In this document: piece by piece, positions 10,844-57,428 of the stretch | How the letters are laid out: every line of letters starts with the position of its first letter | How positions within the stretch are numbered: the stretch's first letter is position 1 | DNA from: Bacilli bacterium | GTDB lineage: Bacteria > Bacillota_I > Bacilli_A > RF39 > UBA660 | Direction: 5' to 3' | NCBI GenBank assembly: GCA_016283075.1 | Contig: JAEEMF010000069.1 | Coordinates: 1-61,616, forward strand | Length of the DNA stretch: 61,616 nt | The notes under the pieces: generated by a model | What the model saw: the letters and a program-made list of their open reading frames with translations, nothing else | The model's database searches: none | What the model was told of the DNA's origin: nothing | Program-made: the position numbers and the translations under genes

Positions 10844-10854
10844 TAGGTGGCAAG

Positions 10855-12624: not shown

Positions 12625-12677
12625 TATTTTCTTCTTTTTTATGTTAAAATAAAAGCACAAAGAGGTAGGTGATTATT

Positions 12678-13496
12678 GTGAAAGTAACTACAATAATTGA
12701 TAGAGATAAGGATAATGTTTTAGAAGCAGCTGAAGTACGTAAAAAAATACATGATTCTATGAAACAAGAAGTAGAGTGGGATCCAGTAATTGCTACTGAA
12801 AAAAGTTTAAATTCTGATGATGCATTATATGTTAGTAGAAGTAGAAGAAATAATACTGATTTCTTTCTAGCTATTGGAGATGATAAATTAGTTCATGATA
12901 GTATGGATGGGCTTATTTATTCTAATACCAAGTTTGGTATAATTCCTTTTGGTTCAAGAAATAATATATATGACAAATTAAAAGGAAAGAAAAACTTTAG
13001 TTTAAGTGTTGGAGGTATTAATAGAACTATCTTCGTAGATAAGATGAATATGGGTATTAATCTTCAAAAAGAAAGTAAGTACTATAATGCACATAAATTT
13101 AAAAGATTATTTAGAAAAGGCTCTTATACTCCTTTTAAAACTAATTTTAAATTAGATGGACATAGTATTACCGATGAATCAGATAATATATTCTTCTTAC
13201 AAATAGAAAATAATATAGAAGAAAGATGTTTTGATATATATCTAATTAGAAATATAGATGAAAACTCTTTATATAAAATATTTGATTTAATGAATAAATG
13301 TTCTTTAAAAGAAATACCATACGTAGAACATTTTGGTGGTATGTTTGTAGATATTAATTCTAAAGATGAACTTGAATATTCCTATGACGGAATTAAAGAT
13401 AAAGATAAAGATATAAAAATAGAGATGAAAAGAGATGCAATTAACTTTATAAATACTGATAAAGTTATTGAGGAAATAAGTAAGAAAAGTAGATAA
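12678..13496 (+). CDS. hypothetical protein with degenerate diacylglycerol/lipid kinase-like motifs
   Basis: AIGDDKLVHDSMDGL and IPFGSRNN resemble the GGDGT and IPxGTGN motifs of DAGK_cat but are degenerate. Start is uncertain (GTG 12669 in the ORF track; GTG 12678 has better spacing from AGGTGA). Confidence 0.5.
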   Translation: MKVTTIIDRDKDNVLEAAEVRKKIHDSMKQEVEWDPVIATEKSLNSDDALYVSRSRRNNTDFFLAIGDDKLVHDSMDGLIYSNTKFGIIPFGSRNNIYDKLKGKKNFSLSVGGINRTIFVDKMNMGINLQKESKYYNAHKFKRLFRKGSYTPFKTNFKLDGHSITDESDNIFFLQIENNIEERCFDIYLIRNIDENSLYKIFDLMNKCSLKEIPYVEHFGGMFVDINSKDELEYSYDGIKDKDKDIKIEMKRDAINFINTDKVIEEISKKSR

Positions 13497-19936: not shown

Positions 19937-22315
19937 ATGGAAATAAAAGATAACTTACTAATAATTGGACCTTCATATTTAAGAAAGAATATACTTGAAG
20001 AAAATAAATTAAAACATAATATAAAGTATATAGATGAATATGAATTAATAGATAAAAATATATATACCTATAAAGACGGGGTACTATCTTACCTTGATAA
20101 GAAAGAAAATATCTCTCCAGAACTATGTAATATCTATTTAAATAATATGTATGATATAGATATTAATAAGAATTATAAGTCTAAAAAACTTAATAAACTA
20201 AGTGTTATAAAAAAAGACTTAATAGATAAAGGATATATTATCTTTAATGACAACTTTAAAAAGTATTTAACTAATAAAGATATCTTAGTACTTAATAATC
20301 ATTTTGATAAAAGAGTATCTAATATAATAAAAGAACTTGATAAAGTAAATCATATTACTTATGAAGAAGATAAAGCACCTTTAAAGAAAGATATAATAGT
20401 TAAAGAATGTCAAACTCTAGAAGATGAAGTTATTTTTGCTGCAACTTCTATAGTAGACTTAATTAACAAGGGAGTAGATATAAATAATATCTATATTAAT
20501 AAATTAAGTGATGATTATAAAGGAGTATGTATACGTATATTTGATATGTATGGAATTCCAACATCATTTAAGAAAAACAGTTTATATTCTATAGAAAGTG
20601 TAAGAAATTTGCTAGATAATATTTCCCTTGACGACAACATATTATCTATAAATGAAAAGTTAGGCTCGCTTGATAGTAAACTATCAAATAAACTTGTAAG
20701 TATCTTTAATAAATACGTTGATTTTGAATATTTTAGGGATGTAAAGGAAGAAATTATCTATGAATGTAAAAATACATTGGTAGATTTATATCCACTTGAT
20801 AGAAGTATTAAAGAAGTAAGTTATAAAACTAAATATTTAAATAGTAATGAATATATCTTTATATTAGGATGTAATGATGCATCTATTCCTTATGTATATA
20901 AAGATGATGATTTCTTAAGTAATGAAGAAAAGAAAGAACTTAATTTAAATAGTTCACTTAAGCTATCTAGATTAGAGGAATCTTATTTTATAGATTATGT
21001 AAATAGTAATAACGTAATACTATCTTATAAATTAAAAGATACTAGTAGTGAATATGCACCATCAAGTGTATTTAATAAGTATTCTAACTTTACAAAAGTT
21101 AACTACTGGTATGGATTTGATAATAAAGAGATTAATAAATTACGTCTTGGAAGTAAACTAGATAACTATTTTAAATATAATGAAGAAGATGACACATTAT
21201 ATTTACTTAGTAATATTAATCTTAATTATAAAGATTATGACAATAACTATACAAAGATAAATTTTGATACTATAAAAAGAGAAACTAATAATAAACTAAA
21301 TATATCTACATCTTTATCAGATGTATATTATGGATGTAAATTTAGATGTCTACTTAATAATATTTATAAAGTAGAAGAGTTTACTCCTACCGTAGCGCAA
21401 AAAATAGGATTATTCTTTCATGATGCATTATGTGAATATTTTAAAGATGGTAATGATTTAGATACTATTATTGAAAGTAAACTTGATAAATATTTTACTG
21501 ATGGTACTAAGAAAGAAAACTTTTATAAAGAAAAGTATTCTAAATCTTTAAACGAATTAGTAGGTATTATAGAACAGCATCTAAATAATACTAATTTTAA
21601 AAACACTTTCTTTGAAAAAAGAATTACTGTGGAAAAACCAAATGACTTAGGTATAAAAATAACAGGTGTAATAGACAAAATACTTACATTTGAAGACAAA
21701 GATAGTACTTATGTAATAGTAATAGATTATAAAACAGGTAATCCACATGACTTTAGAAATGCTGTATACGGTATAGATATGCAGTTAGGATTCTATTTCT
21801 ATTTAATAAATCATTCTAATTTATTTAAGAATCCTAAATTTGGAGGAATGTACCTTCAAAAGATTATGAATGATGTTCTAAATTATGATAAGAAAAGATC
21901 TTATGAAGAACAACTATCTAATTTATCTAAACTAAATGGATATACTACAGATAATGCATTTATTGTAAGTAACATTGATACTACTTTATCACCAGGTGAT
22001 AGTTCTCCTTTTATAGGAAGTCTTAAACTTACTAAAGATGGGGGATTTACAAAACAATCTAAAGTAATAAGTGATGATACATTTAAAGAAGTAATGGATA
22101 TTATTTCAAGTAAAATAGAAAGTGCAATTACTGATATAAATAAATGTGATTTTGAAATAAATCCTAAAGTATTAGATGGAAAGAATATTTCTTGTCAGTA
22201 CTGTACATTTAAAGATATTTGTTATAGAACGCATGATAATGAAGTAGAACTTGATAAAACGCTTAAGGATAACTTTTTAGGAGGTGAATCTAATGAAGAT
22301 GAAGCCGGAAAATAG
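19937..22315 (+). CDS. addB: helicase-nuclease AddAB subunit B (AddB/RexB), short form
   Basis: Sits directly upstream of addA and overlaps it. C-terminal PD-(D/E)XK block (VIDKIL...VIVIDYKTG) with four Cys (CKFRC ... CQYCTFKDIC) as in the AddB Fe-S nuclease domain. No Walker A at the N-terminus. Confidence 0.8.
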   Translation: MEIKDNLLIIGPSYLRKNILEENKLKHNIKYIDEYELIDKNIYTYKDGVLSYLDKKENISPELCNIYLNNMYDIDINKNYKSKKLNKLSVIKKDLIDKGYIIFNDNFKKYLTNKDILVLNNHFDKRVSNIIKELDKVNHITYEEDKAPLKKDIIVKECQTLEDEVIFAATSIVDLINKGVDINNIYINKLSDDYKGVCIRIFDMYGIPTSFKKNSLYSIESVRNLLDNISLDDNILSINEKLGSLDSKLSNKLVSIFNKYVDFEYFRDVKEEIIYECKNTLVDLYPLDRSIKEVSYKTKYLNSNEYIFILGCNDASIPYVYKDDDFLSNEEKKELNLNSSLKLSRLEESYFIDYVNSNNVILSYKLKDTSSEYAPSSVFNKYSNFTKVNYWYGFDNKEINKLRLGSKLDNYFKYNEEDDTLYLLSNINLNYKDYDNNYTKINFDTIKRETNNKLNISTSLSDVYYGCKFRCLLNNIYKVEEFTPTVAQKIGLFFHDALCEYFKDGNDLDTIIESKLDKYFTDGTKKENFYKEKYSKSLNELVGIIEQHLNNTNFKNTFFEKRITVEKPNDLGIKITGVIDKILTFEDKDSTYVIVIDYKTGNPHDFRNAVYGIDMQLGFYFYLINHSNLFKNPKFGGMYLQKIMNDVLNYDKKRSYEEQLSNLSKLNGYTTDNAFIVSNIDTTLSPGDSSPFIGSLKLTKDGGFTKQSKVISDDTFKEVMDIISSKIESAITDINKCDFEINPKVLDGKNISCQYCTFKDICYRTHDNEVELDKTLKDNFLGGESNEDEAGK

Positions 22316-25300
22316 TACATGGACTGATGAACAGTGGGAAGCTATTACTCATGAAGGAGAAAATACTTTAGTATCAGCAGGAGCAGGTTCTGGTAAAACA
22401 GCTGTACTATCTACAAGAGTAATTGAAAAGATAAAAGATGGAATGTCTATCGATAAGTTAATACTTATTACCTTTACAAATGCTGCCGCATTTGAAATGA
22501 AGACACGTATTAAAGATAAATTAGAAAAACTTATAAAAGAAGACCCATCATATAAAGAACAACTAGATCTTTTAGATCAAGCATACATTACAACATTTGA
22601 TGGCCTAGCTTTATCTCTTGTAAAGAAGTATCACTATCTCCTAGGAGTAGATAGATCTATTAATATTATTGATAATGTTGATCTAAATATGAAGAAAAAA
22701 GCATTATTAGATCAAATTATTGAAGATTCTTATGATAATAAAGAGTTTACAGATATGCTAGATATTTACACTAATAAAGATGATGAAAGTATAAAAGAAA
22801 TAATATCTAGTTTCTATGATTCTATGGATATTATTCTAGATAAAAAAGAATACTTAAATACTTATATTGATAAATATTATAGTAAAGAAGCACTTCTTAA
22901 TTATTTAACAAGTTATATGGATATTATCTATAGAACAAAAGAAATAATTATTAATATGGTGGATAATTTATCATCATTTAAAGATAACTTTGATAGAATT
23001 ATTAAATTTAAATTAGCAGTTGAGCCTCTAAAAGAAGCTAAAAACTATCAAGATATAAAATATACTATAAATGAAATATCATTTCCTATTATGTCTAAAA
23101 AACTAGAACTAGATGAAGAAGATAAAGAAGCACTAAAAAAATATAATAAAAAGATTACTGAATATAAAGATTCTTTAAAAGATTTAACATCGTATTCTAG
23201 CTTAGAAGAAATAGAAGAAGAAATATTAGAAACAAAACCATTTGCTAAAGTAGTCGTAGATATTCTTTTAAAACTAGATTCTAAAGTTGAAGAATATAAA
23301 AGAAGTATTAATTCGTACTCATTTAGTGATATAACAAGACTTGCTATAAAACTTCTTGAAGGAAATGAAGAAGTAAGAGATTCTATTAAAAATAATACTA
23401 AAGAAATAATGATAGATGAATATCAAGATACTAATAGAATAGGTGACTACTTAGTAAGTTTAATAAGTAATAATAATGTTTATATGGTAGGAGATGTAAA
23501 ACAATCTATTTATAGATTTAGATATGCTGATCCTAGTATCTTTATGGAAAAATATCAAAACTATAAAAATGGTAATGGTGGTCATGTAATAGATTTAAAT
23601 AAGAACTTTAGATCTAGAGATGAAGTACTATCTTCTATAAATGATATCTTTGAATATATCATGGATGAAGATGTTGGCGGAGCAAACTATTCTATTGGAC
23701 ATAAAATGATTTTTGGATTCTTAAAATTCTTAAATCTTGTTAAAAGTAACTATAATCTAGAAGTATATGATTATAGTACTGAAGAAGAGTATAGTAAAGG
23801 TAAATCTAAGGATATAATAGAAGCCTTTATAATAGCAAAAGATATTAAAAATAAACTAAGTAGTGGTATGGAAGTATATGATAAAGAAGAGGGTATTAGA
23901 CCTATACAGGAAAAAGATTTCTGTATAATAGCCGCATCTAAAACACATTTTGATACCTATAAAAAAGTACTTGATTACTATGGTATAAAGTCTCTTTTAT
24001 ATAAAAATGAAGAATTCTCTTCATCAAATGAAATATATGTTTTAAGAAATATATTAAAACTAATTAATAATATTAAAAATAATGAGGATATTAAATATCC
24101 ATTCTTATCTATAGCAAGATCTTACTTATTTGATTATAAAGATAATGATATCTTTACTAGTATTACTAATAATGATATGAGAAGTAATCCTATATTTAAA
24201 GATTTATTTGATAAGATAGATAACCTTGTAATTAAAAGCGATAATGAATCTATAAGTAATTTACTTTTATCTATATATAAAGAATTTGATATGTATTCTA
24301 AATCTATTAGAATAGGTAATATTGATTCTATAACAGTTAAACTAGATTACTTAGTAAAGAATGCTAAGAATTTAGAAGAAGTAGGGTATACACTTTCTGA
24401 TTATATAGAATATTTAAATGATATTTACACAGGAAAACTAGATATAGAAATGGATAATAAACCTGATCCTAAGACAAATGCTGTTAAGATAATGACAATA
24501 CATGCATCTAAAGGATTAGAGTTTCCTATATGTTATTTTCCAGATATGTATAAAGAATATAATGATAGAGATTTAAACTCTAAGTTTATGTTTGATTATA
24601 AATATGGATTTATAATGCCAGTATTTAATGAAGGTAAAAAAGATACTATTATTAAAACACTAGCAAAAGATAACTATTATAAAGAAGATAGGTCTGAAAA
24701 AATAAGAACTCTTTATGTAGCGCTTACTAGAGCTAGAGAAAAACTTATTATAGTAGCACCTCTTTCTGAATCTAAATACTTAGAACTGCCATTTATAAAT
24801 GGTAAAGTATCAAAGTTAGAAAGAGTAAAACATAAAAGTTTCTTAGATGTACTTGGTAGTATTAAATCAGTACTTAAAAAATACATAACTCATGTTAATT
24901 ATGAAGTAGATACTAATTATTTAAAGACTTCTAAAAAAGATATTACTAAGATAAAGAAATTACCTTATAAGTTTAATGAAAAGTATTTAAATATAGATAG
25001 TAGTATTACAGAAGAAAAAAGTTATTCCCATACTAGAACTGAAATAAAGAAAATAGATTCTTCTTTTGGTACATATATCCATGAAGTATTAGAATACTTA
25101 GATTTTAATAATCCTAAAGAAGATATAAATAATTATAATGTGGATAACTTTATGAAGAGTAAAATACTTAAACTATTTGAGGCGCCTTTTATAAATAAGG
25201 ATGCTAAAGTATATAAAGAATATGAATTCTATAATAACGATACTAAAGGTATAATAGACTTACTTCTAGAATATGAAGATAAGTTTATAGTAGTAGATTA

Positions 25301-25439
25301 TAAGCTTAAAGATATAGAAGAAGATTATTACGTAGAGCAAGTTAAAGGATATATGGAATATATAAAATCTATTACAAGTAAAAAAGTAGAAGGATATCTA
25401 TATTCTGTAATAGATTCTACTTATAAAGAAATAAAATAG
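22293..25439 (+). CDS. addA: ATP-dependent helicase/nuclease AddAB subunit A
   Basis: UvrD-family motifs AGAGSGKT, IDEYQDTN, TIHASKGLEF and VALTRAREKL. C-terminal RecB-type nuclease block (GIIDLL...VVDYK). ATG 22293 lies 8 nt after AGGAGG. Confidence 0.9.
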   Translation: MKMKPENSTWTDEQWEAITHEGENTLVSAGAGSGKTAVLSTRVIEKIKDGMSIDKLILITFTNAAAFEMKTRIKDKLEKLIKEDPSYKEQLDLLDQAYITTFDGLALSLVKKYHYLLGVDRSINIIDNVDLNMKKKALLDQIIEDSYDNKEFTDMLDIYTNKDDESIKEIISSFYDSMDIILDKKEYLNTYIDKYYSKEALLNYLTSYMDIIYRTKEIIINMVDNLSSFKDNFDRIIKFKLAVEPLKEAKNYQDIKYTINEISFPIMSKKLELDEEDKEALKKYNKKITEYKDSLKDLTSYSSLEEIEEEILETKPFAKVVVDILLKLDSKVEEYKRSINSYSFSDITRLAIKLLEGNEEVRDSIKNNTKEIMIDEYQDTNRIGDYLVSLISNNNVYMVGDVKQSIYRFRYADPSIFMEKYQNYKNGNGGHVIDLNKNFRSRDEVLSSINDIFEYIMDEDVGGANYSIGHKMIFGFLKFLNLVKSNYNLEVYDYSTEEEYSKGKSKDIIEAFIIAKDIKNKLSSGMEVYDKEEGIRPIQEKDFCIIAASKTHFDTYKKVLDYYGIKSLLYKNEEFSSSNEIYVLRNILKLINNIKNNEDIKYPFLSIARSYLFDYKDNDIFTSITNNDMRSNPIFKDLFDKIDNLVIKSDNESISNLLLSIYKEFDMYSKSIRIGNIDSITVKLDYLVKNAKNLEEVGYTLSDYIEYLNDIYTGKLDIEMDNKPDPKTNAVKIMTIHASKGLEFPICYFPDMYKEYNDRDLNSKFMFDYKYGFIMPVFNEGKKDTIIKTLAKDNYYKEDRSEKIRTLYVALTRAREKLIIVAPLSESKYLELPFINGKVSKLERVKHKSFLDVLGSIKSVLKKYITHVNYEVDTNYLKTSKKDITKIKKLPYKFNEKYLNIDSSITEEKSYSHTRTEIKKIDSSFGTYIHEVLEYLDFNNPKEDINNYNVDNFMKSKILKLFEAPFINKDAKVYKEYEFYNNDTKGIIDLLLEYEDKFIVVDYKLKDIEEDYYVEQVKGYMEYIKSITSKKVEGYLYSVIDSTYKEIK

Positions 25440-27472: not shown

Positions 27473-28435
27473 ATGAATAGATTTAGAATATCAAAACTAT
27501 TTATCTTTATTATGCTAGTACTTATATTTAGTATAAGTGCTGTTTTTGCATATTCCTATTTAGCAGGGGATGTAGGATTTACTCCTAAGGATAGTAACTG
27601 GGATGTAGATAATACAAAAGATGCTTTAGATGATTTAAAAGAGTCTATTGATAGGAGTTGTAATGATCTAATTAATAATGTATGGGTTTATCCTTACACT
27701 GGTGAAGAACAAATATTTTCAGCGCCTTGCAGAGGATATTATTTACTACAAGTGTGGGGCGCACAAGGTGGAAATGCGACTGCTACTTACATAGGCGGAT
27801 ATGGAGCCTATGCTGAAGGAAAGATAAAAGTTAACCAGGTTGAAAATCTATATGTAAATGTTGGCGGTGCTGGTGCTTCGCAATACACAACAGGAAAATA
27901 TCAAGAAGTTGCTGGTGGATATAACGGCGGAGGAACCGCATCTTGTAATAGTGATAAATATTGCAAGTATTATTATAATGGTTCCGGTGGTGGAGCTACT
28001 CATATATCGAAAGAAAGTGGTTTATTAAAAGATACTGTAAATACTACGAATATTATAATAGTTTCTGGTGGAGGAAATGGTGGTCATCATGACTCTGGTA
28101 CTCCTAGTTGGTCTTATGTTGGAGGAAGTGCAATTGGAATTGCTGAATCAGGCACATACTTTGGTTATGGTGGAAGTAATACTTCAATCGCTACTAATGC
28201 TGGTGGAGGTGGTGGTTACTATGGTGGAAACTATGGAACTGCAACTGCTGCAACTATTCCCGGCGGATCTTCTTATTTATCACCAGCTCTAACTGGTGGA
28301 AAAATATACTGCTATAATTGTACAGAGTCGGAGAATGTTTTTAATTCAGCAACTACTTCTCAAAATCCTGCTATTAATGTTGCAAAACAAGGTAATGGAT
28401 ATGCTAAAATAACATATCTTGGTAAATCTTTATAG
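27473..28435 (+). CDS. secreted glycine-rich repeat protein (family member 1)
   Basis: Signal peptide ending VFA|YSY. Conserved N-module YSYLAGDVGFTPKDSNWDVDNTKDALDDL. Motifs VWGAQGG, GGYGAY, YVNVGGAG, GGYNGGG, GGGATHI and GNGYAKITYLG. Confidence 0.8.
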   Translation: MNRFRISKLFIFIMLVLIFSISAVFAYSYLAGDVGFTPKDSNWDVDNTKDALDDLKESIDRSCNDLINNVWVYPYTGEEQIFSAPCRGYYLLQVWGAQGGNATATYIGGYGAYAEGKIKVNQVENLYVNVGGAGASQYTTGKYQEVAGGYNGGGTASCNSDKYCKYYYNGSGGGATHISKESGLLKDTVNTTNIIIVSGGGNGGHHDSGTPSWSYVGGSAIGIAESGTYFGYGGSNTSIATNAGGGGGYYGGNYGTATAATIPGGSSYLSPALTGGKIYCYNCTESENVFNSATTSQNPAINVAKQGNGYAKITYLGKSL

Positions 28436-28464
28436 AAAAAGCATAGATTTTATCTATGCTTTTT
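28436..28464. terminator. bidirectional terminator between convergent genes
   Basis: AAAAAGCATAGA / TCTATGCTTTTT with A-run and T-run flanks. Confidence 0.75.
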
Positions 28465-28466
28465 GT

Positions 28467-31400
28467 TTAAAATAATTCTAGTTGTTCGCTCTTTTGACCA
28501 CAACTTGTTAATATTAATTCTTTTATTGTTTCATATGATTTGGCAAATGAATTAGGAATTTCAAGAAGAATAATATCATTTTCTTTGCATATTTGTGCTT
28601 TTCTAGTATCACATTTTTCTCTATCAATATTACCAAAGTGTTCTCCACCTTGTAATTCGATAGCAATTTGTGGAATTAAATCAATTCCATGAATCTTATA
28701 TAGAACAACATCGAATTCTAATTTTGATTTGCTTAATATAGGATCCTTAGAGAAAAGGGTACTCAACTTAACATTTCTCTTTGCTTGGAATGTATTATTA
28801 ACGCTGCAAAAGTGAGAAATTGTTTTATAAAACATATCTTCATTTTTACTTCCATTCGAATTACCTATTTTAATTGTGTAAGATTCATTACGAGGTACTT
28901 CTATATTCCCATTATTTGCTACATAATTAACTAGATTATATAAATCATCTTTTTTGTCGGTTGATAGTGCCTTTAATGCTTCGACATCTGATGCAATTAT
29001 TAAGTTTTTCTTTGCTCTTGTAACAGCAACGTTTGTTATTTCGGAATTATTCTTTATCCAATCAAATGTTTTTCTACTTGTTTTTGGTGATAAAGATGAA
29101 GAAATAATAATTGTATCTTTTTCTGCTCCTTGTACTTGATGTATAGTACCACAAGTTATATCTTCCATATTGCTTTCTTTTAACATGGATGAAATCAAAC
29201 TTTGTTGATTTTTAAATGGAGTAATTATTGCTACGTCTTTTAAATTGTTTCTTTTCAAATAATCGATAATTGCTTTTGCTTCCTCATAATTCTCATTTTT
29301 GCGTTTAGAATTTTTATTTTCAACGTTTATTAAAGATAAGTTCCCTTCGTTGGAAAGATAATTTAAATTTAGTTTATCATTATAAAATCTTTTATTGGAA
29401 AAGTTTATAATCTTTTTGCCACATCGATAGTGGTATGTTAACATGATATCTTTTGAAATATTATCGTGCTTTTTCATAACATCTAATATAGAATTTGAAA
29501 TATAGTCATAATCATCTGATATACCATATTGTTCTTTTAAATCACTATTTATTTGCTTTTCTAATATAATTACAGGTTTTAATTGATTAGTATCTCCAAC
29601 TAATAATAAATTTTTCGCTCTTGCTATTGGTAGAAGTGCAACAGCACAGTTACATTGGCCTGCCTCATCCATTATTACTAAATCAAATTTATGATTTGCA
29701 GTCCCTAATCTTGCTGCAGACATGTTTGTTGTTATTATAATTGGGAATGCGTTTTCAAGTAGTTTAATATTTGAATCTATTGAGCACCATTTATTAAAAA
29801 TATTAACTCGTTCATCTTCATCTTCAATCTTACAGACATCAATTAGTTGTGAGTATGAAGGGTTTTTTAATTTCTTAATAAATTTTAATGACTCAAAGTA
29901 CATGTATTGCTTAAAGTATCTATCTTCAGATACTGATGTTACTAAGTTTAGGACATCTTGATTTGTTATTGTTGGAAGTTCGTTGTATTCAGTTATTAAT
30001 TTTTGAAGTTCAGAAGCAACATTTTGATAAATGTGACTTACTGGAGCATCTATTGATTCGAGTAATCTCTTTGCACATTCGATTCTATTTTTAATATCAC
30101 GTTTCTTTTCATATGTTTCAAGATGCAAAACTAACTCTTTGTTATTATTGTTAGTATTATCTTTTATTCTTTTAATTTTATCTTCATCTGGATTAAGTTT
30201 TGATTCATAATTATATAGCTCAAGAATGCGTAATGTTGATTTTGCAACTTCTTGTTTATTACCTAATCTTAAATATGGAAACGGAATATCGTTATCATCT
30301 CGATATGAAAACGACAATTTCTCAAGAATACCATTTATTGGTTTGTTATTTGCCGAGCAGATTAAAGTTGTTTTAAGGTAAAAAAAAGCACTTAATATAA
30401 CGTTGAGAATAGTTTGAGTTTTGCCAGTTCCTGGAGGACCTTGAACATATGTGATAGGATACTTCATTGAATTATATATAACTCTCATTTGATCAATGTT
30501 TACTTTGTCATCATATATTACAATTGATGGTTCTTTGCGTCTTGAACCAAATCTTCTTGTGTTTCCAAAGAATGCTTTTAGTGGATATTCTAATTCTCCA
30601 TTATTAATTTGTTCTTCTATTGTATTGAAAGTTGGCTCTAGATTGGCAGCTGTTATTCTTTGCATAATCATAAACTCTGGCATTTGATTTATTATTTCTG
30701 AACTTCTTAAATTACTTCTAATAAGTTCGGTGTACATTTCTAAGCAATCATCTAAATGATTTACAATATTATCGCAAAATTCTTGCGGGTCCATATTTAT
30801 ATATGCTGATAGTGAATGTCTCTTATTTCTAATTAAGAAACTTTGATTAATTCTTGGGGTCTTATCAATTGATAGCTCTTTTGATGTAGGGTTGAACCTA
30901 ACATTGTAATATAGAACAATATATTTTTTGTCATTTTCATCAATCGACAGAAATGATAGTATTAAATAATTAATTTCAGAATCAACTCTTTTTATATCAA
31001 ATGTTTTAATATATGAAATAACTTTTCTTTCTTGTTCCTCATTAAGTTTGATCTTTTTGTTATTTAGTAATACTTCTTTATCTACCCCATCAACTAGAAA
31101 ACCATCTATTTGATATGGGTCATTATCTAATTCGTTACATTTTAGATAATATTTTAAAATGTTATTATTAAATGTTTCGTATTGAAGCCATTTCGCTTCT
31201 TCACGATTTTTTTCAAGTTTGGTGATTAAACTTTGTGGAGTATCATATGTAGTAAAATCCAAAATCTTTGCACGTACTATGTTATCGAATTTAATTCGAA
31301 CACCTAATGTATCGAGTGATTTTTGGTCGTTAAAAATATCTACGGATAGGATTCTACTTTTTAAATCAATATCTTTAATCGCAATCCAATAATATGTCAT

Positions 31401-31484
31401 TTCGTTATTACTATTTTGGTATGCTATATCGATCCATTTTCCGTATTTAATTGCTTCAGATATTATTAATTCTATATTTTTCAT
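28467..31484 (-). CDS. WYL-like domain / Upf1-DNA2-like SF1 helicase / DUF2726-Vsr-like nuclease fusion protein (candidate defence gene, Hhe-like architecture)
   Basis: Helicase motifs GPPGTGKTQT, VIMDEAGQ, LVGDTNQLKP, YHYRCG, TIHQVQGAEKD and VAVTRAKKNL. N-terminus IDIAYQN...YYWIAIKD...RIKFDNIVRAKIL is WYL-like. C-terminus EFDVVLY...IAIELQGGEH...ILLEIP has a PD-(D/E)xK-like pattern. AAGGTGG RBS. Confidence 0.8.
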   Translation of the reverse strand: MKNIELIISEAIKYGKWIDIAYQNSNNEMTYYWIAIKDIDLKSRILSVDIFNDQKSLDTLGVRIKFDNIVRAKILDFTTYDTPQSLITKLEKNREEAKWLQYETFNNNILKYYLKCNELDNDPYQIDGFLVDGVDKEVLLNNKKIKLNEEQERKVISYIKTFDIKRVDSEINYLILSFLSIDENDKKYIVLYYNVRFNPTSKELSIDKTPRINQSFLIRNKRHSLSAYINMDPQEFCDNIVNHLDDCLEMYTELIRSNLRSSEIINQMPEFMIMQRITAANLEPTFNTIEEQINNGELEYPLKAFFGNTRRFGSRRKEPSIVIYDDKVNIDQMRVIYNSMKYPITYVQGPPGTGKTQTILNVILSAFFYLKTTLICSANNKPINGILEKLSFSYRDDNDIPFPYLRLGNKQEVAKSTLRILELYNYESKLNPDEDKIKRIKDNTNNNNKELVLHLETYEKKRDIKNRIECAKRLLESIDAPVSHIYQNVASELQKLITEYNELPTITNQDVLNLVTSVSEDRYFKQYMYFESLKFIKKLKNPSYSQLIDVCKIEDEDERVNIFNKWCSIDSNIKLLENAFPIIITTNMSAARLGTANHKFDLVIMDEAGQCNCAVALLPIARAKNLLLVGDTNQLKPVIILEKQINSDLKEQYGISDDYDYISNSILDVMKKHDNISKDIMLTYHYRCGKKIINFSNKRFYNDKLNLNYLSNEGNLSLINVENKNSKRKNENYEEAKAIIDYLKRNNLKDVAIITPFKNQQSLISSMLKESNMEDITCGTIHQVQGAEKDTIIISSSLSPKTSRKTFDWIKNNSEITNVAVTRAKKNLIIASDVEALKALSTDKKDDLYNLVNYVANNGNIEVPRNESYTIKIGNSNGSKNEDMFYKTISHFCSVNNTFQAKRNVKLSTLFSKDPILSKSKLEFDVVLYKIHGIDLIPQIAIELQGGEHFGNIDREKCDTRKAQICKENDIILLEIPNSFAKSYETIKELILTSCGQKSEQLELF

Positions 31485-31504
31485 ATGATTCCACCTTCAA
31501 AAAA

Positions 31505-31513
31505 ATAATATCA
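31505..31513 (-). promoter_or_regulatory. extended -10 element (TGATATTAT) upstream of the helicase-nuclease gene
   Basis: Read on the minus strand, ~20 nt upstream of the start codon. Confidence 0.35.
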
Positions 31514-31549: not shown

Positions 31550-31636
31550 AATTATCAAGAAGATGGTTCTGTATTAATACCAAAAGTATTACAACCATAT
31601 ATGGGTGGAAAAGAAAAAATTGTTCCAGTAAAGTAA
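31550..31636 (+). pseudogene. orphan duplicate of the last 28 codons of serS
   Basis: Encodes NYQEDGSVLIPKVLQPYMGGKEKIVPVK*, identical to the SerRS C-terminus. No upstream coding continuity. Confidence 0.9.
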
Positions 31637-31658
31637 GAGTACGTGAGTACTCTTTTTT
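31635..31658 (+). terminator. duplicate of the serS terminator
   Basis: AAGAGTAC / GTACTCTT stem followed by a T-run. Confidence 0.7.
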
Positions 31659-31659
31659 A

Positions 31660-31688
31660 TTGACTAAATATATATATATATATATAAT
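31660..31688 (+). promoter_or_regulatory. promoter TTGACT-17-TATAAT with (TA)9 filling the spacer
   Basis: -35 at 31660-31665 and -10 at 31683-31688. The spacer is exactly 17 nt. Confidence 0.6.
31669..31686. repeat. (TA)9 dinucleotide microsatellite
   Basis: Counted directly: TA x9. Confidence 0.95.
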
Positions 31689-31720: not shown

Positions 31721-32305
31721 ATGAAAAATATTTTTAAAAGAAAAATTCCTTATTTTATACTTGGAGTACTTGTAGCAATAACAAGTACTGTTTTTGCATA
31801 TAGTTATTTAGCTCCCGATGTTGGCTTTACTCCTACTGATACAACTTGGAGTGTTAGTAATGTTAAAAGTGCTTTAGATTCACTTAGAAATGAGCACATA
31901 TTCGAACATTTATCAAACAATTTTCTAAATGGAAGTATTTATGGAATATATAATAGTAGTAGTCTTGCCTTATATAGTGGTGCTTCTAGAGATGGAGATT
32001 ATATATCCCTTAATTCAAATAATGCGCTTTATTCTATACCAAATTTAAGCATTCCAGAGGGGTGTTATTTTATTATTGTAAACGGCCAAAATCTGACAAA
32101 TGCTTTTTCTCCTGATGTAGTAAATGCTTCTACATACAAAGCATATGCTCCCAAAATAGTTGAAAAGGGTAATAATTATGCATATTACTACATAAATGTT
32201 GGAGAAACCATGAGTACTGGAGAATTTAGAATTTGGAATAAATCTTCTAATGTTATAAAAATAAAAACTACAATGATTTTCAACGTTGAGACATGTCCTT
32301 ATTAA
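31721..32305 (+). CDS. secreted protein with the family N-module but a non-glycine-rich C-terminal domain
   Basis: Signal peptide ending VFA|YSY, then YSYLAPDVGFTPTDTTWSVSNVKSALDSL. The C-terminus is unrelated to the Gly-rich body. Confidence 0.75.
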   Translation: MKNIFKRKIPYFILGVLVAITSTVFAYSYLAPDVGFTPTDTTWSVSNVKSALDSLRNEHIFEHLSNNFLNGSIYGIYNSSSLALYSGASRDGDYISLNSNNALYSIPNLSIPEGCYFIIVNGQNLTNAFSPDVVNASTYKAYAPKIVEKGNNYAYYYINVGETMSTGEFRIWNKSSNVIKIKTTMIFNVETCPY

Positions 32306-35297: not shown

Positions 35298-37382
35298 GTG
35301 GATTTAAGTATGCTTAATGAAAACCAATTAGAAGCAGTAAAAACAACAGAAGGACCTCTTTTAGTTTTAGCAGGAGCAGGTTCTGGTAAAACTAAAGTAC
35401 TTACTACTAGAGTAGCGTACCTTATAGAAGAACTAGGAATAGATCCTAAATCTATTCTAGCTATTACATTTACAAATAAAGCTGCTAAAGAAATGAAGGA
35501 TAGAGTTATAAAAATGCTAGGAGATGTAGGATATAAAATACAAATATCTACATTTCACTCATTTGGACTTACTATTATAAAAGAGAATTATAAGTTACTT
35601 GGATATGAAAAGAACTTTACTATACTTGATAGTGAAGACTCTTTAACACTTATTAAAAAGATACTTAAAGATATGGATAAAGATCCTAAAATCTTTAATC
35701 CTAAAATGATAAGAAATAAAATAAGTGGATATAAAAATGACTTAATGGAGCCAGATGACTTAGTTAAGTTTTCAACAAGTGAATTAGATGATTTAATAAT
35801 AAGTGTTTATCGTAAATATAAAGATAAATTAGCTATTAATAATTCAGTAGATTTCGATGATTTATTAATACTACCAATTATTTTATTTAAACAAAATCCA
35901 AATGTTTTAAAATATTATCAAGATACTTTTAAATATGTACTTATTGATGAGTATCAGGATACTAATGAAGCTCAGTATACTTTAACTAAAATGATTAGTG
36001 CTAAGTATAAAAATATATGTGTAGTAGGAGATAATGATCAGTCTATATATTCTTTTAGAGGTTCTAATTATAAAAATATATTAAACTTTGAAAAAGATTA
36101 TAAGAATGCTAAAGTAATAATGCTTGAAAGAAATTATAGATCTACTAAACAAATACTTGATGTAGCAAACTGTATTATTAAAAATAATACACTTAGAAAA
36201 GATAAAAACTTATGGACTAAAGAAGAAAGTGGTTCTAAAGTAAGATATCATAGAGCATCTAACGAAAAAGATGAAGCATCTTTTGTAACAAGTGAAATTA
36301 AAACTCTTATGAAAGATAATCCATTATCTGAAATAGCTGTACTATATAGAACTAATGCTCAGTCTAGAAATATGGAAGAAGCACTTCTTAAAGAAAACAT
36401 TCCTTATAAAGTAATAGGAAGTATGTATTTCTATAAAAGAAAAGAAATTAAAGATTTACTTTCATATTTAAATGTAATTTATAATTCAAGTGATGATATA
36501 AGTTTACTTAGAGTTATTAATGTTCCTAAAAGAGGTATAGGAGATAAAACAATAGAAAATCTTACTATTAAAGCAAATAAAAATCATACAAGTTTATATG
36601 ATGCAATTGATAGTGGAAAAGAATTAGAATTTAAAAATATTATAGAAGATATTAAATCTAAACAAGATAATATGTCTTTAACAGAACTCGTTGATTATAT
36701 ACTTACAGTTACTGGAATAAGATTTGAATTAGAATCAGATGAATCTATAGATTCGGAAATAAGACTTGAAAACTTAGAAGAATTTAAATCTATTACTAAA
36801 GCCTTTGAAGAAGAAAAAGGAGTAGTATCTCTAGAAGAATTTTTAATGGAAATATCTCTAGTATCAGATGTAGAAGAACATAAAAATAATAATGATGTAG
36901 TAACCTTAATGACTATTCATAGCGCAAAAGGACTAGAATTTGATAATGTATTTATTATAGGACTAGAAGAAGGATTATTCCCACATATGAATAGTATGGA
37001 TGATTTTGATGGTATAGAAGAAGAAAGAAGACTATGTTATGTAGCAGTAACTAGAGCAAGAAAAAGATTATATTTAGTTAATGCTAAAGAAAGAATGATA
37101 TATGGTCAAACATCTTCTAATGTAGTAAGTAGATTTATAAAAGAAATAGATAAAGACTTACTAGATATTGATGAAGTTGAAACACTTTATAAACCTAAAA
37201 AAGTTATTCACAGCAATATTGATACAAATGCTGAATATAATCCAGGTGATAAGGTAATACATGATGTATTTGGAAAAGGAATGATTATTACAGTAGATAA
37301 ATCGGTAGTAACAATAGCATTCCCTGGGCCATATGGAATTAAGACTTTAATGAAAGGTCATAGTAGTATTAAGAAAATATAA
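35298..37382 (+). CDS. pcrA: ATP-dependent DNA helicase PcrA/UvrD
   Basis: AGAGSGKT, DEYQDTN, TIHSAKGLEF and VAVTRARKRL motifs. Confidence 0.92.
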   Translation: MDLSMLNENQLEAVKTTEGPLLVLAGAGSGKTKVLTTRVAYLIEELGIDPKSILAITFTNKAAKEMKDRVIKMLGDVGYKIQISTFHSFGLTIIKENYKLLGYEKNFTILDSEDSLTLIKKILKDMDKDPKIFNPKMIRNKISGYKNDLMEPDDLVKFSTSELDDLIISVYRKYKDKLAINNSVDFDDLLILPIILFKQNPNVLKYYQDTFKYVLIDEYQDTNEAQYTLTKMISAKYKNICVVGDNDQSIYSFRGSNYKNILNFEKDYKNAKVIMLERNYRSTKQILDVANCIIKNNTLRKDKNLWTKEESGSKVRYHRASNEKDEASFVTSEIKTLMKDNPLSEIAVLYRTNAQSRNMEEALLKENIPYKVIGSMYFYKRKEIKDLLSYLNVIYNSSDDISLLRVINVPKRGIGDKTIENLTIKANKNHTSLYDAIDSGKELEFKNIIEDIKSKQDNMSLTELVDYILTVTGIRFELESDESIDSEIRLENLEEFKSITKAFEEEKGVVSLEEFLMEISLVSDVEEHKNNNDVVTLMTIHSAKGLEFDNVFIIGLEEGLFPHMNSMDDFDGIEEERRLCYVAVTRARKRLYLVNAKERMIYGQTSSNVVSRFIKEIDKDLLDIDEVETLYKPKKVIHSNIDTNAEYNPGDKVIHDVFGKGMIITVDKSVVTIAFPGPYGIKTLMKGHSSIKKI

Positions 37383-38827: not shown

Positions 38828-38852
38828 AATGATATAAGGTAGGAGTATGTAC

Positions 38853-39908
38853 ATGAAGAAAATATTAAAGTCTAGATTAGTATGTTATTTTCTTGGAATC
38901 CTTACAATGATAGGTGTAGGAAGTGTTTTTGCATACTCTTATATAGCAGGTGAAATAGGTTTTACACCCACTTCTGGAGACTGGGATGTTGAAAATGTTC
39001 AGGAAGCTCTTGATAACTTCCGTGATATAGCAGGAACATGTATTTTTACATGCCCTTATGCACCTGGTTCTACAGTATATGAATCAGGTACATCTGGAAT
39101 AAGTGTTAAATTTGTACCACTATGTAATGGTACTTATCAGTTTGAAGTATGGGGAGCTTCTGGTGGATATGGTTATTCATCTACTTATAGAGGTGGATAC
39201 GGAGCATATGCTAGAGGTGTTGCAACACTTCAAGCAAATGATCCAATATATATTACTATAGGTGGAGTAGGAAAAAATGGTACTTCTAAAACTGCAGATT
39301 ATGCAGGAGGATATAATGGTGGTGGTAATTCTTATCACTGGGGTAATAATAATACCTATAGTGCATCAGGTGGAGGTGGAGGATATTACTTTACTACAAC
39401 TGAAAATGCAGTTGGTGGTTCTGGAGGAGGAATCTCCGGAGTAAATGGTAATGTAAACCCATCCGCTCAGTATAGACGAGGACTTGGTGGAACACAAACA
39501 GCTGCCGGTAGCTTCGATGGTACTGGTCGTAGAGAAGCTAATGCTGGTGGTTTTGGTTATGGTGGAGACTCGAGTGCAACTGTTTCTGGATCTGGTGGAG
39601 GATCTGGTGGAGGAGCAGGATTCTTTGGTGGTGGAGGTTCTTCCGTAGCCGGAGCCGGAGGAGGTTCTAGTTATATTGCAAGTTCACTTCTTATTCCTAA
39701 CAATAGTAATCAAATAAGAAATGTAATGTACTGCTATCAATGTACTGAAAGTAGTAATTTATATACCTATACTGTATCAACTTATGGTACTACAACTCAT
39801 GAAGGCGAAAGAAATTCAGAATGTTCAAGTGGATATAGTACATCACCACTTAGTGGATGTGCTAAATCAGGTAGTGGATACGCCATTATAAAATATATAG
39901 GAGAATAG
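38853..39908 (+). CDS. secreted glycine-rich repeat protein (family member 2)
   Basis: VFA|YSY signal and N-module. Motifs VWGASGG, GGYGAY, ITIGGVG, GGYNGGG, MYCYQCTES, VSTYGTTTHE and GSGYAIIKYIG. ATG 38853 lies 7 nt after AGGAG. Confidence 0.8.
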   Translation: MKKILKSRLVCYFLGILTMIGVGSVFAYSYIAGEIGFTPTSGDWDVENVQEALDNFRDIAGTCIFTCPYAPGSTVYESGTSGISVKFVPLCNGTYQFEVWGASGGYGYSSTYRGGYGAYARGVATLQANDPIYITIGGVGKNGTSKTADYAGGYNGGGNSYHWGNNNTYSASGGGGGYYFTTTENAVGGSGGGISGVNGNVNPSAQYRRGLGGTQTAAGSFDGTGRREANAGGFGYGGDSSATVSGSGGGSGGGAGFFGGGGSSVAGAGGGSSYIASSLLIPNNSNQIRNVMYCYQCTESSNLYTYTVSTYGTTTHEGERNSECSSGYSTSPLSGCAKSGSGYAIIKYIGE

Positions 39909-39919
39909 AAAGGATACGT

Positions 39920-41070
39920 ATGAAAACACACTTAAAGAATTTATTTTTTATAGTGATTGGATTAATCTTGGGGATATCTCTAAGTGTTTTGCATACTCTT
40001 ATTTAGCAGAACAAATAGGATTTACTCCTTCGGCAGAAGACTGGGATGTAGATAATGTTCAAGATGCTTTAGATAGTTTTAGAGATATAGCAAGCCATTG
40101 TCCTTTTGGTTGTGAATATGTTGTAGGAGAACCTGCAATTGAATTACAATATAGAGGTGTAGAGGATGTCGTTAATATAAAATGTCCTGGAAAATTCAAA
40201 ATAGAAGTATGGGGAGCTTCTGGGAATATTGTAGACGCTACTTATGCACATTCCGGTTATGGAGGTTATTCCGTCGGAATTATGTCTTTTAATGAAGGAG
40301 ATACTTTATATATAAATGTTGGTGGAACCGGCGCTTCTTCAACATATGGTTCTGCATCAGGTGGATATAATGGTGGAGGAAGCGGAAAGGATTATAGAGA
40401 TGGAAGAGGAACCGGAGGTGGCGGAGGTGCTACACATATTGCTAAAGTAACTGGTGAACTTAGATATCTTGAATCATTCAAGGGAGAATTAAATAATGCA
40501 TCTGGAACTTATATATCTGACAAGATAATAATTGTCGCTGGGGGTGGTGGCGGAGTTGGTAATTTTACAGGACTTCATACAGCAAATCTTGTTGCGGGTT
40601 CCGGTGGTGGAAGTGTTGGTGTTACAGGAGTTAGTCCAGGAACTGGTAAAACTTACTATGGAACAGGTGGAACACAATTAGCTGCAGGAACTGCTGAAAG
40701 AACAGATTCAGTATACCAGGGGACAGACGGGAGTTTTGGATTTGGTGGAGATTGCACTGGAGCTGCCGAAGGAAACTGTTCTGGAGGAGGCGGAGGATTT
40801 TTTGGAGGAGGCTCCAATTCAAATTACTCTGGAGCAGCCGGTGGTGGCTCTGGTTATATAGGAAACATTTCTTTAAGTGAAAAAGCGATGTACTGTTATA
40901 ATTGCACTGAAAGTGATACTGCTGATTCATATACTGTTTCAACTTATGGAACAACAACTCATGAAAATGAAAGAAATCCGTTATGTGTAAATGGCTATTC
41001 GTTTGATCCTATTAGTAAATGCGCTAAAGCAGGAAACGGATATGTTAGAATAACTTATTTAGGAAGTTAA
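39920..41070 (+). pseudogene. glycine-rich family member 3, frameshifted in a T-run at 39987-39990
   Basis: The N-terminal 23 codons are nearly identical in DNA to the 41085 gene, which has TTTTT where this copy has TTTT. The frame then stops at 40004-40006. The +1-shifted frame continues open (FAYSYLAEQIGFTP...) into ORF 40282-41070. Confidence 0.75.
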
Positions 41071-41084
41071 TAGAAAGGGTAAGT

Positions 41085-42170
41085 ATGAAAAAACACTTAA
41101 AGAATATATCTTTTATAGTGATTGGATTAATCTTGGGGATATCTCTAAGTGTTTTTGCATATTCAGTATTTGCTGAAGAGGTTGGATATACTCCTGTTGA
41201 TACTGAGTGGAATGTAGAAAATTCTAAAGAAGCAATAGATGATTTACATGGAACATGTGATTATTGCAAGAATCGTTTCTTAGGAATTACGTGGGATTTT
41301 ACTTTTGAAGGAAAAGAAAGACAATTTAATGTTCCTTTAAAAGGAATATATAAATTAGAAGCATGGGGAGCACAAGGTGGAAGCTATGATACTACTATTT
41401 ATGGTGGATATGGTGGATATTCAGTTGGTGAAATACTTCTAAATGAAAATGATACTCTTTATATAAATGTTGGTGGGAAAGGTTCGACTACATATCATAA
41501 TGAAACAATTCTAAACGGTGGTTATAATGGTGGTGGGTCTGCTAAATCAATCGGTGATGCTGATGTATATGTTGGTTCAGGTGGCGGAGCTACACACATA
41601 GCCAAGGCATCAGGTTTACTATCAACTTTAGTGACAAATCAAAGCGATATTTTGATAGTTGCAGGTGGTGGCGGAGGAGCTAACAAGTTTGTCTCGGATT
41701 ATTATGGTCATGGTGGAAATGGAGGAGGAGTCTCTGGTGAAAAGCCTACTTTAACTAATGTATCTGGCTATACTTATCCAATTGGCACAGCTAATGGAGG
41801 AACCCAAAATGCTGGTGGTAGTTACATGACTACTTGTTCTGGAAGTGCCTGTTATAATACACAAGCCGGTAGTTTTGGCCAAGGTGGCAATGCCATTAAT
41901 GTAAGAACATCAGGTGGAGGCGGAGGCTACTATGGAGGCTCTAGTGGAGCAAGATCTGGTGGAGCAGGTGGTTCTGGATATATAGCAGCCCTTAATCAAA
42001 AATCAATTGATATTGATGAAAAACATATGACTTGTTATAAATGTACAACTTCTAATAATGCAATAGATCGAACAAGAACAACTGATAATGTATCAGAAGA
42101 TGCTGAGAGCGATTATGCAAAAATGGGGAATGGTTACGCTAAGATAACTTTAGTAATGGTAAGCCAGTAA
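41085..42170 (+). CDS. secreted glycine-rich repeat protein (family member 4)
   Basis: Signal peptide ending VFA|YSV and an N-module. Motifs AWGAQGG, GGYGGY, YINVGGKG, GGYNGGG, GGGATHI and GNGYAKITL. Confidence 0.8.
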   Translation: MKKHLKNISFIVIGLILGISLSVFAYSVFAEEVGYTPVDTEWNVENSKEAIDDLHGTCDYCKNRFLGITWDFTFEGKERQFNVPLKGIYKLEAWGAQGGSYDTTIYGGYGGYSVGEILLNENDTLYINVGGKGSTTYHNETILNGGYNGGGSAKSIGDADVYVGSGGGATHIAKASGLLSTLVTNQSDILIVAGGGGGANKFVSDYYGHGGNGGGVSGEKPTLTNVSGYTYPIGTANGGTQNAGGSYMTTCSGSACYNTQAGSFGQGGNAINVRTSGGGGGYYGGSSGARSGGAGGSGYIAALNQKSIDIDEKHMTCYKCTTSNNAIDRTRTTDNVSEDAESDYAKMGNGYAKITLVMVSQ

Positions 42171-57416: not shown

Positions 57417-57428
57417 ACCTGCTTTTCT
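57401..57428. terminator. bidirectional terminator between convergent genes
   Basis: AGCAGGTT / AACCTGCT stem flanked by A-run and T-run. Confidence 0.7.

Follow-up and report, generated by a model that had tools for sequence, protein, structure and literature searches.

What is the function of a gene that encodes a helicase joined to a nuclease and that runs against the direction of its neighbours? The gene in question lies on the minus strand of contig JAEEMF010000069.1 (assembly GCA_016283075.1, from a Bacilli bacterium); the whole 61,616-nucleotide (nt) stretch of that contig that was analysed is called the window. Judged from its sequence, the gene probably encodes a self-contained, single-protein enzyme of nucleic-acid surveillance or immunity, one of an unnamed and horizontally spread family, and I would put the probability of this reading at roughly 0.6. 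Four modules follow one another along the protein: a WYL-like β-barrel, a family-specific α/β domain, an Upf1-like superfamily 1B (SF1B) helicase, and a C-terminal endonuclease of the Vsr/DUF2726 type. All of the ATPase and nuclease residues conserved in the family are intact in it. The gene behaves as an accessory, mobile one, patchily spread over phyla and placed, in the window, within an insertion bracketed by repeats.

The fusion had been proposed as a candidate one-gene anti-phage system in an initial annotation, made by eye. The open reading frame stands at exactly the coordinates claimed, and the motifs quoted there are all found in its translation. The parts of the gene, with their extents in amino acids (aa), are these:

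28467 to 31484, minus strand: gene for the WYL-like / Upf1-like helicase / Vsr-like nuclease protein (1005 aa, ATG start, complete open reading frame)
31245 to 31484, minus strand: WYL-like barrel, aa 1-80, one helix and a five-stranded β-barrel (from the model and Foldseek)
30504 to 31244, minus strand: family-specific α/β region and linker to the helicase, aa 81-327 (from the model)
28965 to 30503, minus strand: Upf1/Sen1/Dna2-like SF1B helicase core, aa 328-840 (from Pfam, PDB sequences, fold and motifs)
29745 to 30212, minus strand: long helical insertion in the first RecA domain, between motifs I and II, aa ~425-580 (from the model)
28470 to 28859, minus strand: putative PD-(D/E)xK nuclease domain of the Vsr/DUF559/DUF2726 type, aa 876-1005 (from family profiles and the model)

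The helicase core and the C-terminal nuclease

The assignment of the central part to the Upf1/Sen1/Dna2-like SF1B helicases is certain. Pfam AAA_11 matches aa 328-640 with 108.8 bits (cutoff 27, E 5e-31) and AAA_12 matches aa 666-833 with 82 bits (cutoff 27, E 5e-23), and the sequences in PDB that match the core are those of DNA2, Sen1, IGHMBP2 and Upf1. The model that AlphaFold2 gives for the whole protein, on the basis of 49 diverse relatives, has a predicted local distance difference test score (pLDDT) of 87.2 and a predicted template modelling score (pTM) of 0.79. Foldseek aligns it with SETX/Sen1, Upf1, Aquarius, IGHMBP2, Dna2 and ZNFX1 at E-values of about 1e-24 to 1e-18, the structural alignments to eukaryotic and archaeal Upf1-like helicases having only 12-18% sequence identity. 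The expected motifs are in place (Walker A GPPGTGKT, DEAGQ, Q634, R687, QG785-786 and R823), and K355, D606, E607, Q634, R687, Q785 and R823 are invariant or nearly so in 75 diverse members of the family. The insertion between motifs I and II, modelled as helices at 434-477, 484-502, 522-540, 542-551, 556-567 and 570-579, is by comparison the least conserved part of the protein (aa ~434-579). An Upf1/DNA2-like core at about aa 340-830 with a long insertion at this point was what the initial annotation had read from the motifs, and profiles, fold and model all agree with it.

The C-terminal domain is established as a Vsr/DUF2726-type nuclease at the level of the family, as predicted from sequence profiles. 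In the window protein itself, DUF2726 scores 20.8 bits (E=3.3e-4), below the Pfam cutoff of 24.7, while among 49 diverse family members the same domain is matched in 36 (E up to 0.01; best 7.2e-16), MTES_1575 in nine and DUF559 in four. When the C-terminus was searched as a single sequence against PDB sequences, nothing was found; only the family profile of the domain reached a structure, 3r3p (E=6e-4), which I take to be the Vsr-like catalytic domain of the homing endonuclease I-Bth0305I. In the AlphaFold2 model the elements run α-βββ-α-β, which is the order of the restriction-endonuclease core, and D925, E943, E948, H949, D959 and K962, each kept in at least 69 of 75 members, are intact in the window protein. 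The reading of the C-terminus as DUF2726- or DUF559(Vsr)-like, which would have fallen had the domain proved to have some other fold, is thus upheld by family matches, the profile match to 3r3p, topology and residues. I also considered whether Q945 might be an inactivating change, the E-x-D-G motif of the DUF559 type usually having aspartate there. It is not a defect, since family members differ at this position (D in 34 members, N in 25, C in five, Q in two, and others).

The N-terminal barrel and the region that follows it

A separate model of aa 1-325 (pLDDT 87.8, pTM 0.83) gives a helix, then the barrel, then an α/β region that extends to about aa 305. The strands of the barrel, at 17-23, 29-40, 45-52, 56-65 and 69-75, are modelled with pLDDT above 93, and a motif (F/Y)-W-(I/C) is conserved at aa 32-34. 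The best matches of the barrel among PDB folds are WYL proteins of four separate families, BrxR, PafBC, CapW and DriD, over 81-91 columns with root mean square deviations of 3.2-5.6 Å, probability ~1, and E-values of 3.8e-3 to 0.1. Of the Pfam families, WYL (PF13280) alone turns up repeatedly in 32 N-terminal modules: five have it, all below threshold (best E 0.048). The two signals, from Foldseek and from Pfam, are each weak and are concordant, and on them the barrel is marginally WYL-like. The earlier description of aa 1-80 as WYL/Sm-like stands, therefore, as regards the five-stranded barrel and its best structural matches; the statistics are marginal and no Pfam threshold is passed. A profile of the N-terminal module found nothing significant among PDB sequences (best E 0.095), and a search of its model against the folds of BFVD gave only small phage barrels with weak E-values, three of them annotated as WYL. 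Residues conserved in this part are W17, Y22, N24, T30, W33, N52, I69, A72 and the lysines K13/K16/K44; no conserved arginine was found among them.

The region from aa 81 to 327 is confidently folded (pLDDT mostly 84-96) and always accompanies the barrel at the N-terminus of proteins of about 1000 aa. It had been left unassigned (as aa ~100-330), and so it remains: aa 85-305 have no significant match in Pfam, in PDB sequences, among PDB folds searched with Foldseek, or in BFVD.

A family patchily spread

The N-terminal module proved useful as a family marker. A search with aa 1-330 alone against 1.84 billion representative proteins returned 295 clusters at 50% identity, and since nearly all complete members are about 1000 aa long with the module at their extreme N-terminus, it defines a family of fixed architecture. 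Close relatives are plentiful in metagenomes (more than 120 full-length homologues of ~1005 aa at 67-76% identity); where named, they come from metagenome-assembled genomes called "Bacilli bacterium" and are annotated only as "DNA helicase". In reference genomes, full-length members occur in uncultured Bacilli, in Erysipelotrichaceae, Acholeplasmataceae, Izemoplasmataceae, Staphylococcaceae, Lachnospiraceae and other Clostridia, and further in Coriobacteriaceae, Treponema, Cryomorpha and Chryseolinea. This is a patchy distribution over four phyla for only some 300 clusters. No neighbour is conserved: over 37 loci, the 141 genes immediately beside the helicase gene represent 162 Pfam families, none of them present in more than five loci, and the scan rules out a conserved partner gene. 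The homologues are not syntenic core genes; had they proved to be conserved core genes, that would have spoken against the defence proposal.

The close clade was sampled as eight distinct annotated contexts. That homologues might be found in defence neighbourhoods had been suggested from the start, and restriction or defence genes do lie near the helicase gene in five of the eight, as a raw count:

L001: type IIG restriction-modification and a Schlafen/AlbA_2 protein
L003: LlaJI with AAA_5, nSTAND3 and MTES_1575
L005: DUF3427-PLD helicase, NUDIX and MazG-like
L006: RloB with AAA_21, MrcB_N/NOV_C and MazG-like
L173: McrBC, DpnII, methylase and YobI-ATPase

The core genes that flank the helicase in L003 are 86-92% identical to those in L005, the helicases themselves only 74%, and everything beyond the helicase differs; in this pair, to judge from the identities, the helicase diverges faster than the core genes around it.

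Full-length copies were found neither on 72,556 plasmids nor in 50,697 phage records, where only the helicase core is matched, so that nothing supports its having come from a sequenced plasmid or phage. One of these partial matches extends further. Plasmids NZ_CP124741.1 (177576-179702; Escherichia coli O157:H7 EDL933) and NZ_OQ420472.1 carry an "AAA domain-containing protein" that aligns with aa 315-976 at 27.5% identity, covering the helicase and part of the C-terminal nuclease without a match to the N-terminal module. By this alignment it may be a relative in which helicase and DUF2726 are fused behind another kind of N-terminus.

Several further observations concern these loci. In seven of the eight close-clade contexts (the window, L001, L003, L005, L006, L171 and L173) the helicase gene is opposite in strand to all of its neighbours and head-on to the presumed direction of replication, which is not so in the wider family; in the L loci it stands at about 10001-13018. 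A Schlafen-group-3-type helicase with a MazG-like gene recurs near it, on either side (L005 19279-21783, L006 4732-9500, L173 16108-19089), with NUDIX added in L005 and L006, whose MazG-like proteins are 91% identical; this cassette may be a separate defence module. In L172, positions 1-2138 hold a fragment of a reverse-transcriptase gene and, from a prophage, a lysis cassette of XhlA, holin and CHAP endolysin; these stand some 8 kb upstream of the helicase.

An autonomous gene within an insertion

The window was scanned for open reading frames of at least 100 aa. As the initial annotation had it, no credible gene besides that of the helicase lies on the minus strand between position 1 and 57.4 kb; the two further minus-strand frames are one of 108 aa, nested within a plus-strand gene, and a gene at 57428-59260. 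The window has a GC content of 23-30%, nearly all of its genes run with positive GC skew, and the skew flips across the helicase gene. The signals and repeats that surround the gene are as follows:

31505 to 31513, minus strand: TG-extended −10 element, TGATATTAT (from a consensus scan and the sequence)
31491 to 31498, minus strand: strong Shine-Dalgarno sequence, GAAGGTGG (from the sequence)
28436 to 28464, both strands: strong bidirectional intrinsic terminator with a 13-bp stem, common to the helicase gene and the convergent gene at 27473-28435 and lying between their stop codons
27305 to 27416, plus strand: left direct-repeat copy (112 nt), the 3' end of the functional serS and its terminator
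31550 to 31661, plus strand: right direct-repeat copy (112 nt), an orphan serS 3' fragment with terminator, abutting the helicase promoter

When the upstream regions of six homologues from unrelated contexts were aligned, the TG-extended −10 box was the only conserved DNA, and on that ground the gene carries its own minimal promoter. With a folding free energy of −16.1 kcal/mol (z −4.6) on one strand and −14.3 kcal/mol (z −4.8) on the other, the terminator hairpin is flanked by an A-run and a T-run, which supply U-runs on both strands. The extended −10 and the two-way terminator that had been ascribed to the gene are accordingly both supported, by consensus scan and by folding energies. The helicase gene is an autonomous transcription unit with no conserved partner gene.

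The two direct-repeat copies are 96% identical and consist of the last 87 nt of serS and its terminator; with a copy on either side, the helicase gene does lie inside a bracketed insertion, as had been claimed. The homology starts abruptly within the serS coding sequence. Past the repeat, weaker homology extends over a TTGACT-N17-TATAAT promoter and into the genes at 27473-28435 and 31721-32305, of which it covers the first ~55 codons; the former encodes a glycine-rich ALK_LTK_GRD protein. A second, independent assembly (GCA_016295205.1) has the identical gene order, its contig breaking at the repeat. A 4245-bp block, comprising the serS 3' end, the gene of the glycine-rich protein and the helicase gene, was thus placed at the 3' end of serS by recombination. 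The helicase gene would have arrived together with the glycine-rich secreted-protein gene, in an event that duplicated the serS 3' end; no recombinase was found.

The uninterrupted site was also sought. Among 80 metagenome loci with SerS relatives (71-87% identity) no empty serS-mnmA site was found, and none of them shared another gene of the window; synteny in this group is too poorly kept for such a site to be demonstrable. Exact look-ups of SerS and of MnmA with a GTG start returned no record, and those of MnmA with an ATG start and of the helicase returned only the second assembly of the same arrangement. Two other lines were set aside. The composition of the helicase gene is of no use as a sign of foreign origin (GC at third codon positions 0.18, against 0.10-0.16 in its neighbours, too small a difference), and the flanking glycine-rich secreted proteins are not partners, being absent from every other context of the helicase.

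The insertion has left a trace of its own. The orphan serS fragment at 31550-31636 is a leftover of 28 codons, YQEDGSVLIPKVLQPYMGGKEKIVPVK followed by a stop codon, with its own copy of the terminator, and it is at this copy of the repeat that assemblers break contigs. The genes at 27473-28435, 31721-32305 and 41085-42170, for secreted or anchored proteins, have in common an N-terminal module of ~55 aa (a signal anchor followed by FAYSxxAxxVG(F/Y)TPxDxxWxVxNxKxAxDxL) and differ in their C-termini. The window has four genes with the ALK_LTK glycine-rich domain, related entries standing also at 38847-39908 and 40282-41070, and these genes account for a GC-rich stretch at 39-42 kb. The glycine-rich part matches phage protein families of uncharacterised function. 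The product of the only other minus-strand gene in the window, at 57428-59260, is a β-helix (pectate-lyase-like) protein whose N-terminus has a methylation motif of the prepilin type.

Comparison with known systems

The nearest named analogue is Hhe. Like it, the window gene is a single gene in which an AAA_11/AAA_12 Upf1-like helicase is followed, on one polypeptide, by a PD-(D/E)xK nuclease of the Vsr/MTES_1575 type, and this is the part of the proposed Hhe architecture that holds. Hhe also carries a C-terminal DUF3320. Membership of the Hhe family does not hold. Hhe (NCBIfam NF042953, PADLOC PDLC02194; Gao et al. 2020) is about 1800-1900 aa long, the window protein about half that; NF042953 scores 94.9 bits against a cutoff of 2000, with only positions 1267-1540 of its 1797 aligned, and the PADLOC match covers the helicase core only. 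The N-terminus of Hhe is DUF4011 (by the name of the NCBIfam model), to which the N-terminal 330 aa here are unrelated: DUF4011 has no match in the window protein, nor among the reported matches of 49 family members. By score and domain content, then, the window protein is not an Hhe. Hhe itself is a single helicase-nuclease gene of phage defence that responds to DNA-metabolism genes of the phage (bioRxiv 10.1101/2024.10.10.617714).

The helicase cores of defence systems that come closest are those of Mokosh (Millman et al. 2022), MkoC at 2.8e-55 and MkoA at 2.4e-46, matched in all 49 members, and type II Mokosh is likewise a single helicase-nuclease protein. The Mokosh nuclease, however, is of the phospholipase-D (PLD) type, and no PLD domain was found in the window protein, in the 49 family members or in the neighbours within the window. 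The N-terminal regions are unrelated, and of profiles 1100-1600 aa long only the helicase part is matched (in MkoA/MkoC profiles, positions 669-970 of 1136 and 632-1099 of 1112). The window protein is not Mokosh.

CnuH of type III-B CoCoNuT also resembles the window protein: its SF1 helicase is UPF1-like, has an insertion that is helical or coiled-coil, and is joined directly to a Vsr-like PD-(D/E)xK nuclease (PMC11090510). Its N-terminal domains differ, and genes for the McrB-like GTPase (CnuB) and the McrC-like protein (CnuC) are absent within 10 kb in the window, as is any conserved partner over the 37 loci. The window protein is not a CoCoNuT of this type.

The likeness to other Upf1-like helicases (Upf1, Sen1/SETX, IGHMBP2, Dna2, ZNFX1) lies in core fold and motifs, their accessory domains being different. 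Dna2, too, has a PD-(D/E)xK nuclease beside its helicase, but in Dna2 the nuclease is N-terminal to the helicase and here it is C-terminal. Nhi, too, has its nuclease N-terminal to an SF1 helicase, in contrast to the order here; no Nhi was found among the matches in PADLOC 2.0.0, although whether that release holds an Nhi model was not verified.

As for the N-terminus, the best structural matches of aa 1 to ~85 are BrxR, CapW, DriD and PafBC. WYL sensors are barrels that sense single-stranded DNA (ssDNA) or ligands and are tied to phage defence and responses to DNA damage (PMC9186387, PMC11662680). These four are transcription factors of the form HTH-WYL-WCX (HTH, helix-turn-helix); the barrel in the window protein is N-terminal, lacks the HTH and is fused to an enzyme.

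Neither the N-terminal module nor the full length is covered by any model of Pfam, of NCBIfam (release 20) or of PADLOC 2.0, and a full-text literature search found no paper that joins DUF2726, a helicase and defence in this architecture. The suggestion that the combination of WYL, helicase and nuclease may be undescribed is in keeping with both searches. I regard the family as a candidate for an unnamed single-protein defence system of the helicase-nuclease kind, with a WYL-like N-terminus and a domain that is an orphan in fold.

How the protein may work, and what else it might be

The WYL domains of DriD and CapW bind ssDNA (PMC9186387, PMC11662680). By analogy, the barrel of the window protein, possibly with the adjacent domain, may bind single-stranded nucleic acid arising from phage or plasmid replication or from DNA damage. 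Such binding would load or license the helicase, which would then translocate 5'→3', as SF1B enzymes do, and bring the tethered endonuclease onto the DNA (possibly the RNA) of the invader for cutting. The invader would in this way be cleared or, should nucleic acid of the host be cut as well, the infection would be abortive. A more specific version, that a WYL-like sensor of ssDNA is wired in cis to an Upf1-like translocase and a Vsr-type nuclease, with aa 85-305 as a new module of specificity or autoinhibition, and that this is the founding member of an undescribed immune family, is offered only tentatively.

A number of observations weigh against an immune enzyme of this design, beginning with the sensor. 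No Foldseek match of the barrel falls below 1e-3, and Pfam WYL gives no match in the window protein, though E-values of up to 10 were admitted. The ligand pocket of CapW/BrxR is made of a serine and three arginines, an arginine-rich pocket for ssDNA (PMC11662680), and nothing like it is evident among the conserved residues. Immediate neighbours in the wider family are heterogeneous, with only a minority matching PADLOC models; of the close-clade contexts, L171 is ambiguous and L008 (the same context as L172) has no recognised defence genes. The genes around the window copy (serS, mnmA, addAB, pcrA) are all housekeeping. Finally, the close clade is abundant and of very constant length (~1005 aa) at ~70% identity, and a conserved cellular function would look alike.

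Part of this is what would be seen if the protein were a housekeeping helicase-nuclease of DNA repair or replication, processing ends or flaps in the manner of Dna2 or RecD2 and taking no part in immunity. Dna2 is among the best matches in both sequence and structure, DriD and PafBC show that sensors of the WYL type serve responses to DNA damage too, and two of the contexts are without defence genes. A repair role nevertheless seems unlikely to me. The window already encodes an AddB-like protein (PDDEXK_1), an AddA-like protein (UvrD) and PcrA, at 19937-25439 and 35298-37382, so the genome has the usual housekeeping helicase-nucleases. Some 295 clusters over four phyla make a patchy family, not one that is lineage-wide, and synteny is lacking; the gene diverges faster than the core genes beside it, its window copy is bracketed by repeats, and restriction and defence genes are frequent neighbours. 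The nuclease, moreover, is C-terminal and of the Vsr type, unlike the N-terminal one of Dna2. If the protein is immune, its target might instead be RNA, the helicase acting, as in Mokosh, on phage transcripts or RNA-DNA hybrids that the nuclease then degrades. The closest defence profiles are indeed the Mokosh helicases MkoC and MkoA; SETX/Sen1, Upf1, IGHMBP2 and Aquarius, which match best in structure, are RNA helicases; and for the UPF1-like helicases of CoCoNuT, one of which carries a Vsr-like nuclease as a fusion, RNA is the predicted target (PMC11090510). Upf1-like enzymes such as Dna2 and IGHMBP2 act on DNA as well, however, and it is ssDNA that the WYL domains of the top structural matches bind. 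The characterised nucleases of the Vsr/DUF559 type and the homing endonuclease I-Bth0305I cut DNA. Sequence does not discriminate between the two substrates, and I consider an RNA-directed enzyme quite unlikely.

A last view of the gene would make it selfish, its Vsr-like endonuclease driving its own homing-like insertion and any benefit to the host being incidental. The domain that the C-terminal profile found in 3r3p, its only relative of solved structure, belongs to a homing endonuclease; the gene, equipped with a promoter and a terminator of its own, moves as a minimal unit and is oriented against all neighbours in seven of eight close-clade contexts, and its window copy is tied to the duplication of the 3' end of the target gene. 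Yet 1005 aa, with an intact, conserved helicase and a sensor-like module of 330 aa, far exceed the needs of homing. Insertion sites differ and have no common target sequence; intron, intein, recombinase and terminal inverted repeats were not found in the window, nor was a copy found in the plasmid or phage collections. This view is very improbable. The reading of the gene as a surveillance or immunity enzyme carried by a mobile family is the one that I retain.

What the finding would mean

Fusions of a helicase with a nuclease are a familiar theme, and single-gene defences of this kind are known (Hhe, Nhi, Hna and type II Mokosh), how they sense infection being mostly unresolved. The chain described here is compact and confidently modelled and holds a candidate sensor, a motor and a nuclease together, which opens the question of sensing to mutagenesis and biochemistry. 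Among uncultured low-GC Bacilli of the gut, where few defence systems have been characterised, the family is common, and, being invisible to Pfam (in its N-terminal region), to NCBIfam and to PADLOC 2.0, it would be missed in catalogues of defence repertoires. If the tentative view of the barrel is true, the effector itself would read the "ssDNA alarm", which in known systems works through WYL transcription factors alone.

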